This document shows positions 6,329 through 15,440 of a DNA stretch of 15,440 nucleotides, piece by piece. The notes beneath the pieces are model-generated. The model was not told where the DNA came from, did not search any database, and saw only the letters and a program-made list of their open reading frames with translations. The DNA comes from Hormoscilla sp. Its GTDB lineage: Bacteria > Cyanobacteriota > Cyanobacteriia > Cyanobacteriales > Desertifilaceae. A program made the translations under genes and the position numbers. The stretch is taken from assembly GCA_051439505.1 (NCBI GenBank), contig JBFRWI010000003.1, positions 1 through 15,440 of the forward strand, given 5' to 3'. Positions within the stretch are counted from its first letter, which is position 1. Every line of letters starts with the position of its first letter.

Positions 6329-6418
6329 AAATATTCGCTGTTAGCCCGCCGGGGGTTGAAAATATTCGCTGTTAGCCCGCCGGGGGTTGAAAATATTCGC
6401 TGTTAGCCCGCCGGGGGT
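6329..6418 (+). repeat. 31-bp tandem direct repeat, ~3 copies
   Basis: AAATATTCGCTGTTAGCCCGCCGGGGGTTGA at 6329, 6360 and 6391 (last copy matches for 28 bp); no spacers. Confidence 0.95.
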
Positions 6419-6460
6419 ATCCCACCCCCGGCTAATAGCTAAAGTCGGTTAAAACCGACT
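6397..6460 (+). repeat. Two-hairpin REP-like dispersed repeat, copy 1
   Basis: GCCGGGGG-TATCCCA-CCCCCGGC, TAATAGCTAA, AGTCGGTT-AA-AACCGACT. Confidence 0.85.
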
Positions 6461-7142: not shown

Positions 7143-7256
7143 AATGTAGCCTCTGGGTGGAATGGCAATTTTTAATGGGTGCATTTTTAATTGGGATTGC
7201 TTATGCTTTATACCATTTTGCCAAAAAATGCTAAAATTACTTGAAGTTAGATTATT

Positions 7257-7320
7257 AGTCGGTTTCAACCGACAAGAGGCTGTTAGCCGGGGGTTTGAAC
7301 CCCCGGCGGGCTGACAGCGA
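7257..7320 (-). repeat. Two-hairpin REP-like dispersed repeat, copy 2 (inverted relative to copy 1)
   Basis: Reverse complement reads TCGCTGTCAGCCCGCCGGGGGTTCAAACCCCCGGCTAACAGCCTCTTGTCGGTTGAAACCGACT. Confidence 0.85.
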
Positions 7321-7416
7321 AGTGAGAAAACTTTCGCGGAAGAAGTATGGGAACATTTGCCGACATTTAGTATTATACTTGAGGTGTTCTCAGGCTGGGC
7401 AAGAGACTAGCACTCG

Positions 7417-10298: not shown

Positions 10299-10354
10299 TG
10301 GCCCGCCCGGGGTTCAAACCCCGGGCTAATAGCTCAAGTGGGTTAAAACCCACT
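10299..10354 (+). repeat. Two-hairpin REP-like dispersed repeat, copy 3
   Basis: GCCCGGGG-TTCAAA-CCCCGGGC, TAATAGCTCA, AGTGGGTT-AA-AACCCACT. Confidence 0.85.
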
Positions 10355-10523: not shown

Positions 10524-12008
10524 ATGACTAATGCTGCAGCTGTAACAACTGAGTACGAAGCCATTATTGGTTTGGAAACTCACTGTCAACTGAGTACCAA
10601 AACGAAAATTTTCTCCAATTCTTCGACGGAATTTGGTGGTACTCCTAACACCAATATCGACCCCATATGTATGGGAATGCCCGGAGTCCTTCCCGTCCTC
10701 AACGAAAAGGTTCTGGAATATGCGGTGAAGGCGGGTTTGGCCCTCAATTGCGAGATTGCTAAATACAGCAAGTTCGATCGCAAGCAATATTTCTATCCAG
10801 ATCTGCCGAAGAATTACCAGATTTCTCAGTACGATCTCCCGATCGCGGAACATGGTTGGCTGGAAATTGAACTGATGGATGCTGATGGCAACCCCGTGCG
10901 GAAAAAGATTGGCATTACTCGCCTCCATATGGAGGAAGATGCCGGAAAGTTGGTCCATGGCGGCAGCGATCGCCTCTCGGGTTCGACCTATTCTCTGGTA
11001 GACTATAACCGCGCGGGAGTGGCCCTGGTAGAAATAGTCTCGGAACCGGATATGCGATCGGGACAGGAAGCTGCTGAGTACGCCCAAGAACTGCGTCGGA
11101 TTATGCGTTACCTGGGGGTTAGCGATGGTAACATGCAAGAAGGTTCCCTCCGCTGCGATGTGAATATCTCCGTTCGTCCTGTGGGTCAAGAGGAATTTGG
11201 CACGAAGGTGGAAATTAAAAATATGAACTCCTTTAATGCCATCGGACGGGCGATCGACTATGAAATTGATCGGCAAATTGCGGCGGTGGAAGCAGGGGAG
11301 AAGATCGTCCAAGAAACGCGCCTCTGGGAAGAAGGTTCTCAACGGACTATTAGCATGCGCAGCAAGGAAGGTTCTAGCGACTATCGCTACTTCCCGGAAC
11401 CGGATTTACCGCCGATTGAAGTATCGAAAGAACAGCGGGAAACATGGAAATCTCAATTGCCGGAACTGCCCGCCCAAAAGCGCGATCGCTATGAAAGTAA
11501 ACTGGAACTTTCTGCTTACGACGCCCGGGTGCTGACGGACGATCGGGCGGTGGCGGAATATTTTGAAGCTGCCGTCGCGGCAAATGCCAATCCCAAGCAA
11601 GCAGCAAACTGGGTGATGGGGGACATTGCGGCCTATTTGAATGCGAACAAACTCGGCATTACCGACATTGCCATTACCCCCGAGGCCCTAGCGGAGATGG
11701 TAAACTTGATTGAAGATAAAACCATCAGCAGCAAAATTGCCAAAGACATCTTGCCCGAGCTATTATCAAAAGGAGGGTCGCCGAAGGAGTTGGTGGAAAG
11801 TAAGGGTTTAATCCAAATTTCCGACCAAAGCGCTCTGGAAGCTATAATAGATGAAGTGATTGCCGCTCATCCCAAGGAACTGGAACAGTATCGCAAGGGT
11901 AAAACTAAGCTGCAAGGTTTCTTTGTCGGACAGGTGATGAAGAAAACTAGCGGTCGCGCCGATCCCAAGTTGACAAATCAGTTGTTGGGTAAAAAACTTA
12001 AGGGTTAG
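10524..12008 (+). CDS. gatB: Asp-tRNA(Asn)/Glu-tRNA(Gln) amidotransferase subunit B
   Basis: [85 protein letters not shown]. Confidence 0.98.
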
Positions 12009-12019
12009 AATAAGGTAAC

Positions 12020-12133
12020 CTGGTTCCTAGGCTCAGCCTGGGAACCGTCAACAGAGGCTCTGCCTCCTGTTGGTTAATGACACGGGAGGCAGAGCCTCAA
12101 AAACAGCATTGGCAGGTTCTACCTGCCAACGAG
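12020..12133. repeat. Three-hairpin palindromic element downstream of gatB (possible terminator/RNA stabiliser)
   Basis: GGTTCCTAGGC-TCA-GCCTGGGAACC (12022-46); GAGGCTCTGCCTCCTGT...ACGGGAGGCAGAGCCTC (12054-98); TTGGCAGGT-TCT-ACCTGCCAA (12109-29). Confidence 0.85.
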
Positions 12134-12230
12134 ATCTATCCTACTATTCTACCTGGGATACTTCTGGTGAATGAGTTCGATCGCCTGCCACGGGTGCCGA
12201 TAATTCTTCGCCGAGAAGGGACTTTCCCCA

Positions 12231-12260: not shown

Positions 12261-12264
12261 GCTT

Positions 12265-12477
12265 AGTGGTACATTCATCCTTCAGACAGCTTGCGATTTG
12301 CCTGAAGGCATTCAAGTTGAACTTTTTGTAAAATTACCTCAAGTCATTCCCCCCAAGATCGCCGATCTTGGTGCTAGACAGGATTTTTTAAGGCGACTTG
12401 TCGAACGAATGCAACAAAACCCTATTCCCTCAAATGCTCCTCTGTTTACGCGAGATATGTTCCATGAACGCAGTTGA
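12265..12477 (+). pseudogene. Probably 5'-truncated antitoxin (DUF104/AF2212-like)
   Basis: SGTFIL...DLPEGIQVELFV pattern and FTRDMFHER C-terminus typical of antitoxins upstream of PIN genes. The heptamer repeat sits where the start codon and RBS should be. Confidence 0.6.
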
Positions 12478-12544
12478 CACGAACATTTGAATTGACGTTA
12501 ATGATTCGCGAGATCCTGGCAAGCAGGCAATTGCAGCTTCTTTT
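12464..12544 (+). pseudogene. PIN-domain toxin remnant
   Basis: ATG 12464 reads MNAVDTNI*IDVNDSRDPGKQAIAASF: PIN N-terminal xDTN motif, in-frame TGA at 12488-12490, homology lost at about 12545. Confidence 0.8.
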
Positions 12545-12568
12545 GCACGCGAGCGTGTTATACTAGGC
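12545..12568 (+). repeat. Isolated 3' end of the long recombination-site-like element, with core GTTATAC (12557-12563)
   Basis: GCACGCGAGCGTGTTATACTAGGC matches 13617-13640 at 22/24. Confidence 0.75.
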
Positions 12569-12634
12569 ATAGCCTCTGAAACGGACGAGCAGCGGTGTGG
12601 ATTAAAATAGAAAAAGTTACTGCCCATTTCCTGC

Positions 12635-13102
12635 ATGAGTGAAACTGTCTACATTGAAACGAGTATCTTAGGCTATCTTACTGCTCGATCCAGCAGAGAT
12701 CTTGTCGTGGCTGCCAATATAGAGATTACGAGGGAGTGGTGGGATACGCGCCGTGGTTACTTCCAACTCTACTCTTCGCAAGCCGTCGTCAAAGAAACGT
12801 CACAAGGAGATGCTCAAATAGCATCTCAACGACTCGCAATCATTCGCGATCTGGCGTTACTCGATTTGAACCAATCTGTGATCGATCTAGCAGAGCAGTT
12901 GCTGGGACGCAGTAACCTGCCTGCCAAAGCTGATGTTGATGCTATTCATATCGCAGCCGCAACTGTTCATGGCATGGATTACCTGCTGACGTGGAACTGC
13001 AAGCATATTGCTAATGCTCAAATTCAGATAAAATTTGCAGAAATAAGTCTTGATTTTGTACCCCATACGAACTGCTTGGAGGTTAATTATGTATCCCGAT
13101 GA
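12635..13102 (+). CDS. PIN-domain (VapC-like) toxin with a frameshifted C-terminus
   Basis: VYIETSILGYLTAR...REWW...DAIHIAAATVHGMDYLLTWNCKHIANA. The family-type ending CTPYELLGG* lies in another frame (13057-13086). Confidence 0.85.
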   Translation: MSETVYIETSILGYLTARSSRDLVVAANIEITREWWDTRRGYFQLYSSQAVVKETSQGDAQIASQRLAIIRDLALLDLNQSVIDLAEQLLGRSNLPAKADVDAIHIAAATVHGMDYLLTWNCKHIANAQIQIKFAEISLDFVPHTNCLEVNYVSR

Positions 13103-13298
13103 GATTGTCGAAGAAATTCACAGAATCCGTGAAGAGTACTCTCGTTCATTCAATCACGATCTAAAAGCCATATTTGCTGATTTACAAAAGCAGCAAGCGG
13201 CAAGCGGCAAGGAAGTTGTGAATTTATCTCGAAAGCCCGGTAGAACAAGACGTTGGAGCGGACGGGCGCGAGATATTGGTGGAGATGCTCCCGAATAA
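13089..13298 (+). CDS. Small protein downstream of the PIN gene (putative antitoxin)
   Basis: MYPDEIVEEIHRIREEYSRSFNHDLKAIFADL; GGAGG RBS at 13078-13082; the 3' end reads into the attC-like site. Confidence 0.8.
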   Translation: MYPDEIVEEIHRIREEYSRSFNHDLKAIFADLQKQQAASGKEVVNLSRKPGRTRRWSGRARDIGGDAPE

Positions 13299-13326
13299 TC
13301 TCCGCCGCTCAATTTAGCCGTTGTTA
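13240..13326 (+). mobile_element. attC-like integron cassette recombination site
   Basis: R'' GTAGAAC (13240-46), 5 nt, left arm GTTGGAGCGGACGG, right arm CCGCCGCTCAAT (pairs with two extrahelical bases), 6 nt, GTT at 13320. Confidence 0.75.
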
Positions 13327-13333
13327 TGATGCC

Positions 13334-13640
13334 GAATTAACTCTGTAAAAACTTAAGGCCGATCGCCCCCACTGTCTCGGCATATTCTTCATGCAGACCG
13401 GTGGTTACCGTACAGTTCTGTACGGGTTGCATCCCTTGCGCCACCACGGGATATCGATATATGAGAACAGAAAGGGGTCGTCGGGGCGATCGGTACAAGA
13501 TCGGCAGGTAGGCAGAAAGAGGCACAGCCGTGCGAAATTTCAAAGAGCTGAATCTCTTTATGGGAGAGGCTTTCAGGCAAGTTAACAAAAATTAACTTGC
13601 CTTATAGGCTACCTTGGCACGGGAGCGTGTTATGCTAGGC
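13334..13640 (+). repeat. Long non-coding repeated element ending in GTTATGC (attI-like or atypical att site); left boundary uncertain
   Basis: 13425-13512 is homologous to 14784-14881, and 13617-13640 to 12545-12568. Internal inverted repeats at 13408-13425, 13548-13576 and 13575-13602. Confidence 0.6.
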
Positions 13641-13741
13641 TCAGGAAATAGGTCCAGAGCGATTTGGACCACCTCCGGCGGCGGCATACTGTTCGCCCAC
13701 AAGATATCCACCGGCAATAGGCTTGGGCAGCTATTTGCCGT

Positions 13742-13805
13742 GCCGAACCATTCAGTGGAGGCGGATGTGGGGTATAAAGCACCGCTAGCATCAAGGTCGT
13801 TATTG
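13742..13805 (+). mobile_element. Short degenerate attC-like site
   Basis: GCCGAAC-CATTC-AGTGGAGGCGGATGT...GCACCGC...GTT at 13799, directly upstream of the methyltransferase. Confidence 0.5.
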
Positions 13806-13844
13806 ACAACAAATGAAATTCAATTAGGCAAATCAGAGAAGAAA

Positions 13845-14708
13845 ATGAAACTAAGCAAATCTGAGTATAACAAATCGAGGGATTTCTATGATGAGATTTT
13901 TAATGAATTCAAAATGGATTTTTCTCTCTATGAGGATTTGGTTGAAATATTGAAGCCGAAATCTGTATTAGAGCTGGGTTGCGGAATGGGTCGATTGTTC
14001 GGGATATTTATGAAAGAAGCAAAGGAGATAACCGGGATTGATTTAAGTGATGAAATGATATCTCAAGGAAGGAAGTATTATGCCGAACATAAGGTAGAGA
14101 ACGCAATTGTTGAATTTGTGAATACAGATATGTGTTCATTCCAACTCAATAAAAAATATGATTTAATTGTGTTTGCCTTGTCCGTATTAAAACATTTAAG
14201 TACGGATAAAGATCGACTTACCGCTTTGAAAAATGCCAAAGAACATTTAAGTGAAGAAGGATTTATTGTTATTGACCAAGCACCTTTGCTGTACGCTTCG
14301 AGACCCACGGATTGGATTGATGCCAAAAACTCACTGGTAGCGGACTGGTTGCCAGCTACCAGTGTTCTTGACGGTTACCAATGGAAGAAATCTCTAGAAG
14401 GGAACATAGACATTCTGCAATGGAGGTATAAGAATTCAGAAGAAATCCAATTTGAGGCTCAGTTTACAACTTACCGATATGATATCGATCGACTGATTGA
14501 GCATCTCAGTCAACTGGAGATGAGTCACGAGCAGATGCTCACGGAATGGGGTGTTAATGGTTTAGGCAATAAAGGAAAACGATTTATTGGTTTAGCTTGT
14601 CATCCAGGGAAAAAATACAGCCCGAAACGCGAACTCATAGAGAAGGTGAAAAAGCGTAATGAAAGATTATGGTCCGATTTCGATCTGTATCTTGAAGACA
14701 AAAAGTAA
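13845..14708 (+). CDS. Class I SAM-dependent methyltransferase
   Basis: VLELGCGMGR motif I, TGIDLSDEMI, TDMCSFQLNKKYDLIV, HLSEEGFIVID. Start ATG 13845 (MKLSKSEY). Visibly more AT-rich than the core genes. Confidence 0.9.
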   Translation: MKLSKSEYNKSRDFYDEIFNEFKMDFSLYEDLVEILKPKSVLELGCGMGRLFGIFMKEAKEITGIDLSDEMISQGRKYYAEHKVENAIVEFVNTDMCSFQLNKKYDLIVFALSVLKHLSTDKDRLTALKNAKEHLSEEGFIVIDQAPLLYASRPTDWIDAKNSLVADWLPATSVLDGYQWKKSLEGNIDILQWRYKNSEEIQFEAQFTTYRYDIDRLIEHLSQLEMSHEQMLTEWGVNGLGNKGKRFIGLACHPGKKYSPKRELIEKVKKRNERLWSDFDLYLEDKK

Positions 14709-14723
14709 ATGAAAATGTAAAGA

Positions 14724-14885
14724 TGCCAACATCCTGAATACCTTCTCAGGTTTCCCGTGACTTGATGGCGATCGCCAGCTACTGGTTGCCATCCCTGGCG
14801 CCACCACACCGATACAGACTGGATATCGATATATGAAAACAGAAAGGGGGATGGGCGATCGGGACAAGATAGGTAGGTAGGTAAC
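14724..14885 (+). repeat. Second, 3'-truncated copy of the long element
   Basis: GGATATCGATATATGAAAACAGAAAGGGG (14821-49) matches 13449-77 at 28/29 with flanking homology. TGCCAAC at 14724-30 lies just after the methyltransferase stop. Confidence 0.75.
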
Positions 14886-14911
14886 TGACGAGGAAAAATA
14901 TGGTCAAGATT

Positions 14912-14940
14912 TGCTATACTCAAGCAGAGGGTCTAGGAGG
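14912..14940 (+). promoter_or_regulatory. Extended -10 element and RBS of the UPF0175/DUF3368 operon
   Basis: TGCTATACT at 14912-14920 and AGGAGG at 14935-14940. Confidence 0.5.
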
Positions 14941-14947
14941 TTATGCC

Positions 14948-15211
14948 ATGAAAATCGCGATTGAAATACCTGACAAAATCGCCAAGTATATGGAAGAGAA
15001 ATGGGGTAATCTGGAACAGCGGGTGTTGGAAATTACCGCTGCCGAAGCCTATCGAGATGAGGCAATTACTCATGCTGAGGTGGGGCGGATACTTGGCTTG
15101 GGCCGCTATGAAGTTGATGGGTTTCTCAAGAAAGAAGGCGCTTATCTAAACTACACCCTAGCAGATCTAGAGCAAGATGTCCAGAATATTCGCAAAGTGA
15201 GGGGAAAATGA
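14948..15211 (+). CDS. UPF0175 family protein (putative antitoxin)
   Basis: MKIAIEIPD...EAYRDEAITHAEVGRILGLGRYEVDGFLKKEGAYLNYTLADLEQD; RBS before ATG 14948. Confidence 0.88.
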   Translation: MKIAIEIPDKIAKYMEEKWGNLEQRVLEITAAEAYRDEAITHAEVGRILGLGRYEVDGFLKKEGAYLNYTLADLEQDVQNIRKVRGK

Positions 15212-15440
15212 CTGTTATTTCTAATACGTCACCTTTGCGTTATTTGATACTGATTGACCAATTTGAACTATTGCCACAATTATTCGATCGCGTGTTCGTT
15301 CCCCAAGCAGTGTGCGATGAACTGGGGGCTTCCGTTGCCCCAACAATAGTGAGAAACTGGATTTCCAGCCCGCCAGACTGGCTGGAAATCCAATCGGTAT
15401 CTACGCCCCCGGACGTCCCACTGCAACGATTGGGTGCTGG
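15208..15440 (+). CDS. DUF3368 family PIN-domain toxin, truncated by the window edge
   Basis: ATGA overlap with UPF0175; reads MTVISNTSPLRYLILIDQFELLPQLFDRVFVPQAVCDEL...PPDWLEI. Confidence 0.88.
   Translation, partial: MTVISNTSPLRYLILIDQFELLPQLFDRVFVPQAVCDELGASVAPTIVRNWISSPPDWLEIQSVSTPPDVPLQRLGA

Follow-up and report, generated by a model that had tools for sequence, protein, structure and literature searches.

The window, the 15,440-nucleotide stretch analysed here, corresponds to contig C3 in a Hormoscilla genome of 6.47 Mb with 48% G+C. From gatB onward, the parts mapped below lie on its forward strand. The gatB gene (10524-12008; NCBIfam GatB, E 6e-222) is the left anchor of an island of toxin-antitoxin and restriction genes. 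Behind it follow, in order, a truncated gene pair, a PIN-like gene pair, an attC site, a non-coding element of about 300 bp, a methyltransferase gene, a partial copy of the element and a UPF0175 pair. The truncated pair (12264-12543) is a second, partly broken toxin-antitoxin pair, whose version in the congeneric genome G002 is longer and ends in an attC site of its own. The gene lying between copies encodes a SAM-dependent methyltransferase (13848-14708; Pfam Methyltransf_25, E 1e-15). The last feature is a UPF0175 gene with the beginning of its likely partner toxin gene (14948-15440; Pfam UPF0175); the contig stops at 15440, where two congeners, G001 and G003, continue into further tandem repeats. 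In the congeneric arrays, the genes between copies include XisH/XisI, DUF433/DUF5615, AIPR, DNA methylases and a Z1 protein, the content varying by genome. In G001, G002 and G004 the island is closed on its far side by a worn copy (78-82%) of the gatB 3' end (11831-12138), as might result from integration into the gene or from a duplication; the G002 copy matches C123:1213-1562 of the window's genome. Just behind gatB in G002, an ORF-less group II intron (L030:12575-13490; Rfam RF00029, 44 bits) lies inside a short dispersed repeat. Elsewhere in the window, an 88-bp direct repeat (2131-2218 and 2856-2943, 93%) flanks a DUF433/DUF5615 pair, and dispersed palindromic repeats are found at gene ends (6329-6421, 7255-7321 and 10301-10354), with three tandem 31-bp copies at 6329.

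The PIN-like gene (12635-13102) and its small partner (13089-13298) form an integron gene cassette (12558-13320, the 5' limit being inferred). Homologues of the pair occur in 113 of 301 genomes. The window protein itself gave no match; its G002 orthologue gives a weak PIN hit that stays below the cut-off (E 0.0035). At 13054 the window gene lacks 22 bases present in its relatives, which shifts the C-terminal frame. The pair ends in a true attC site (13240-13326; HMM E 1e-13), just upstream of the element, which the first-pass annotation of this DNA had missed. Its crossover falls between the G and the TT of a GTT, at 13320/13321. The inverted boxes, the position behind a gene and the unrelated sequence after the crossover are those of an attC, and the same site often ends homologues of the pair in many cyanobacteria, again with unrelated sequence beyond the crossover (30 loci); the fold of the whole site as DNA was no better than that of shuffled sequences (z -0.15). 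A CALIN, which needs at least two attC sites within 4 kb in the absence of intI, was rejected, since the window has one attC and the two in the G002 island lie about 6 kb apart.

The first-pass annotation had described the element as present in three pieces, and direct comparison bears out both recurrences that it reported: 13449-13477 matches 14821-14849 at 28 of 29 positions, and 13617-13640 matches 12545-12568 at 22 of 24. Two motifs that it cited are likewise present in the window as written. In a search against the whole genome, 13421-13512 matched 14780-14881 at E 1.9e-13, and with as many as 4 mismatches allowed for the 24-mer and 5 for the 29-mer, each was found in two places and nowhere else in the 6.47 Mb, so these repeats are not due to chance. 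The repeat is real; the boundaries first drawn for it are wrong. It had been called dispersed and was taken to end at a GTT, the supposed core. Apart from one part, considered below, it is restricted to the gatB island, and the homology resumes beyond the GTT at 13654-13737.

The element was matched in all four congeneric genomes and in none of 96 others, and the matches were clustered. From ten stretches retrieved around the congeneric matches we defined a non-coding unit of about 475 bp, repeated head to tail in the island, of which the element is one worn, deleted copy. Six full units of 374-487 bp are 84-91% identical and carry frame-breaking indels. Two Hormoscilla records, L247 and L253, have the same repeat, and searches of plasmids with the unit and with the element gave no match. 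The genomes are 93-97% complete; G001 is 7% contaminated, so that its second array may reflect a mix of strains. A protein-coding origin of the unit was rejected because its open frames differ between copies and are broken by the indels, and a dif/Xer site seems unlikely because, judged by eye, its left arm did not fit the consensus.

The unit is a mosaic of an island-specific stretch, a dispersed MITE that lacks its right tip, and the integrase-proximal boxes of a six-box attI region. In the window copy, a variant 5' arm (13331-13445), weakly similar by alignment to unit positions ~95-148, contains the CCGTACAG hairpin; its first part, 13331-13406, recurs at 89% in G001, G003 and G004, in G001 and G004 behind a restriction-modification operon. 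The island-specific stretch follows at 13446-13500 (unit ~292-343) and is found only in arrays, as is the whole of unit 97-337 (about 240 bp), for which no source was matched. The MITE remnant then occupies approximately 13501-13622 (unit 344-467) and is joined to a relic of an attI box (13627-13653), after which a deletion of about 80 bp precedes the resumed unit at 13654-13737 (positions 105-183; 83% identity, E 1e-17). The partial copy at 14780-14881 covers unit ~255/273-355 and ends inside the left end of the MITE. The smallest piece, at 12545-12569, runs from unit 462 to 12 (96%) and consists of the right part of the MITE and the left arm of attI box 1, with the truncated gene fused on its left and the cassette leader on its right; G002 has the same junction. 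In G002 and G003 the R'' box of the attC (GTATAAC) is the complement of GTTATAC, and the PIN-like cassette may therefore begin at the GTT of this fragment. This match is the single hint of a possible integrase action at the unit.

Twenty copies with the GTT motif were compared in the five genomes (our own and the four congeners). In 14, the next 16 bases match the unit at 13 or more positions; four share a variant continuation that is still within the unit; and two, the 12558 site and its G002 orthologue, which represent one event, leave it. Homology thus runs on past the GTT in 18 of the 20, an outcome that the first-pass annotation had itself held to speak against its reading. It had also been asked whether copies end at the GTT with variable genes downstream; we found no shared boundary and no variable sequence after the GTT. 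Points of entry into the unit (255, 273, 292, 317, 373, 404, 453 and 462) and of exit from it (12, 26, 62, 92, 142-165, 183, 218, 244 and 355) are scattered. Some empty units follow one another head to tail without an intervening gene. The junction of tandem units lies inside the third box, not at a GTT, and so gives no evidence of a duplication made by an integrase.

The MITE part derives from a family of 125-133 bp with ends TAAGYAGGT...ACCTACTTA, dispersed among unrelated flanks; as a short dispersed family with terminal inverted repeats, it has the characters of a MITE. An nhmmer profile of seven copies found the window copy (13504-13601, E 2e-14) and 12 other places in the same genome. 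The left end occurs 50 times in the five genomes versus once in the control, and 12 of 28 loci retrieved were full length. Copies begin and end with TA, which as a target duplication cannot be told from the element ends themselves. Neither the 25 end pairs in the same genome nor the 28 loci yielded a parent transposase. Within the unit the MITE is not intact: its right tip is replaced by the attI junction and, in the window copy, its left end is mutated. The nested inverted repeats reported in the first-pass annotation lie in this remnant, so part of the element does map to a mobile element family, a result that the annotation had counted against itself.

These hairpins bear on the proposal that the element is a structured non-coding RNA associated with cassettes. 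The single window copy does fold well (z -3.06; 2 of 100 shuffles as good), and across 12 copies two short inner helices are paired in 87-90% of cells, but the hairpins belong to the MITE part. The outer stem proposed earlier, CCGTGCGAA with TTGGCACGG, is present in sequence and is not conserved: it is copy-specific, is paired in 44-45% of cells and, among the 12 copies, shows no change on both sides. The covariation score for these copies (0.027) was reached by 145 of 500 shuffles, and RNAalifold found compensatory change at 0 of 19 pairs. An Rfam search of the window gave nothing on the element and two sub-threshold hits elsewhere; on three array loci it gave nothing on the unit, returning instead the group II intron and, over a short tandem repeat, a 24-nt match to CRISPR-DR28. 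In the sole RNA run, which contains 5% of the sequence words, contigs cover 13108-13415 at a depth of about 4, together with MITE-like pieces; strand and ends are not given. We regard a structured RNA tied to cassettes as very improbable. Nor was any attC detected by HMM or pattern at 13331-13640, where the stem is not conserved; the first attC pattern used missed the attC sites of contig C174 (see below).

The third part of the mosaic was recognized from intact integrons. An IntI-family search placed 22 of 401 genomes over the cut-off, and repeated inverted boxes of 25 bp lie upstream of many cyanobacterial intI genes, the series ending in a box, five bases and the crossover GTT; loci of the picocyanobacterial type and f54 have no repeated boxes within the stretch inspected. 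In the L205-L284 set, cyanobacterial attI regions have up to six inverted boxes; complete sites have six, spaced about 40-32-41-39-73 bp. When the full unit was searched against 251 genomes, eight weak matches fell outside the genus; six of them are on unit ~12-72, and four of these six lie just upstream of the 5' end of intI. The attI region L069, found via its integrase alone, matches the unit at E 1.5e-5. A matrix of 41 boxes (12 regions given, 11 contributing, with some circularity in that 3 of the 12 had been found by likeness to the unit) detected 13 forward sites at 20-27 bits in the congeneric arrays. Over both strands of the window's whole genome it detected six sites of at least 18 bits, and only the C174 relics exceed 20. 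An HMM of the six-box region, built from seven sites, gave 12 forward-strand hits in the arrays at E <=0.03, 11 of them within model positions 20-118; five shuffles gave none. The last copy in G001 is collinear with boxes 1-4 of the six-box attI L267. Judged by homology to these boxes, the congeneric copies are attI-derived. Taken alone, the window copy has no matrix site of 7 bits or more and no HMM hit, so its attI assignment rests on its identity to the congeneric copies.

In the window copy, box 1 retains its left arm, GTTATGC (13629-13635), and boxes 2-4 are deleted; the relic also reads as an extended -10 sequence (TG-n-TATGCT, 13628-13636). By this alignment, what was formerly taken for a core at 13629 is the left arm of box 1. 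The true crossover, absent from the unit, would lie about 255 bp away. In intact loci this arm adjoins the position of the intI start codon. No box in the arrays, including L247 and L253, is followed by N4-6-GTT. Most copies have a well-preserved box 2, which may reflect selection or simply recent copying.

An exact 21-base box pattern, written to fit both the unit and intact sites and to that extent circular, found 105 stretches in the species collection; among the 80 listed, 50 are cyanobacterial by title. Several boxes are present at 38 of these 50 loci, and 35 end in the N4-6-GTT core. Since that core is absent from the search pattern, its presence argues that the box is a real mark of attI. 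Remains of intI lie within 4 kb at 17 of the 50 and not at the other 33, and 4 are near full-length genes. Among the 30 listed non-cyanobacterial stretches, one has several boxes, four a GTT core and one intI remains. Three records (L218, L239 and L264), titled Anaerolineae or uncultured bacterium, have the same box with a GTT core, and one adjoins an intI 5' end; given these, this type of site may reach beyond the cyanobacteria. We found no published description of the cyanobacterial attI structure or of the unit in a search confined largely to non-subscription journals and to main texts without supplements.

It had been asked whether a copy lies next to an integrase gene. None of the five genomes has an IntI over the TIGR02249 cut-off, and no scrap of intI was found in the gatB arrays. 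Weak hits on G003 C359 reach 51 bits, against a cut-off of 265, and include a 279-aa ORF that by eye resembles an ordinary tyrosine recombinase. The window's genome does contain a second amplified attI unit, of about 300 bp, at C174 27335-37781 (minus strand), among toxin-antitoxin and methylase genes. It begins from host DNA, the 3' part of a gene, to which are added what by eye is a scrap from the 5' end of intI, a pair of boxes and a core that is intact; attC sites lie near 23460 and ~30650, and a 21-aa intI scrap at 19824-19886. Its core continues into host membrane-protein gene sequence, starting at a GTTAG that lies in the unduplicated gene of G001. Such a junction appears compatible with recombination between attI and a secondary site, as reported for class 1 integrons in the accessible part of PMC3518468. 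The two units differ in that the junction of the gatB unit is inside a box, whereas that of the C174 unit is at an intact attI core.

Of the integron interpretation offered by the first-pass annotation, the origin holds: there is an attI half-site, an attC upstream and, in the congeners, a series of boxes. The idea of a working attI-like site or of an atypical long att site does not, for lack of a core, a common boundary, variable sequence after the GTT and an integrase. The element is thus not a working attI, an attC, an intact MITE or part of a CALIN; it is derived from attI and a MITE. We consider it probable that it is the fossil of a tandemly amplified integron platform, lacking integrase and crossover and presumably inactive today, in which a MITE is joined to the integrase-proximal boxes of attI. 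An integron behind gatB would have taken up cassettes, of which the attC cassette remains. A MITE would then have inserted next to intI. The integrase gene was likely lost in a deletion reaching from within the right end of the MITE to box 1, because the MITE occupies the position of the intI start codon of intact loci. Duplication of the fused segment likely followed, and unequal exchange between chromosome copies likely spread it through the island, which would have carried toxin-antitoxin and restriction genes between copies of the unit, and scattered deletions may later have worn the copies down.

Two other accounts give the copies a present function. The unit might have been kept and multiplied as a promoter module, its attI-derived -10-like hexamers driving the toxin-antitoxin and restriction genes behind it. 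TG-n-TATACT is found 70 nt ahead of the PIN-like gene and TG-n-TATGCT about 210 nt ahead of the methyltransferase gene, the majority of copies stop just short of a same-strand gene, and integron platforms have a cassette promoter (PMC4889954, accessible part). However, the element has no sigma-70 -35/-10 pair, the region 12400-15000 has 1 such site against 5.5 in shuffles, and neither the scattered break-off points nor the empty units without a gene between them favor a promoter module, which we consider unlikely. The copies might instead be incomplete but working attI sites on which an integrase acts in trans, with cassettes entering at or near the boxes and growth by recombination of attI with secondary sites. 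The start of the 12558 cassette at the box 1 GTT, the complementary R'' box in G002 and G003 and the C174 junction, in which an intact attI core is joined to the GTTAG of a host gene, point this way, and truncated attI sites do work in class 1 integrons (accessible part of PMC12901181). The unit, however, retains the crossover-distal end of the attI region and no core; nearly all of the compared copies continue inside the repeat after the GTT, breakpoints are scattered, and the five genomes have no integrase over the cut-off. We therefore doubt strongly that the copies serve in this way. A further reading, which we rate as quite improbable, is an integrase-free, self-amplifying defence island, whose crossover-less clusters of IntI boxes would be multiplied as landing pads, attracting a visiting integrase, directing cassettes to GTT sites close by and providing promoters; if so, this would be an array built of attI pieces, not of attC sites.

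If the fossil-platform reading is correct, it describes a route of integron decay, the loss of intI followed by tandem amplification of attI pieces in a defence island, taken twice in one genome. This route would be invisible to tools based on attC and intI; IntegronFinder, according to the accessible part of PMC4889954, searches attI for classes 1-3 alone. A by-product outweighs the element itself: the 21-base pattern is a marker for the cyanobacterial attI with six boxes and picks up many sites that have no integrase close by, and it makes the role of the accessory boxes directly testable.

Delta-attI-type cassettes of mobile integrons reportedly keep the crossover end of attI. The unit differs from them in lacking that end and in having no integrase present. 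It resembles them as a set of partial attI copies between genes inside an array; Delta-attI-type cassettes, however, recombine with IntI1 (accessible part of PMC12901181). CALIN and isolated cassettes (PMC4889954; 10.1101/2022.09.11.507474; accessible parts) are similar in having attC cassettes with no nearby integrase, but in this island attI remnants outnumber attC sites and the unit, rather than attC, marks the limits of the array. Like bacterial MITEs (review PMC10969869), the family found here is short (125-133 bp), with terminal inverted repeats and dispersed among unrelated flanks; it differs in that the copy in the unit is without its right tip and no parent transposase was found. In attI1 of class 1 integrons (L and R boxes, DR1 and DR2; accessible part of PMC8946536), GTT-type half-sites are likewise repeated upstream of the crossover, and the intact cyanobacterial attI, like attI1, sits between intI and the first cassette. 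In contrast to attI1, the inverted boxes of the cyanobacterial site number up to six, at the 40-32-41-39-73 bp spacing, and the unit keeps the crossover-distal boxes alone, coreless, fused to a MITE and tandemly repeated.
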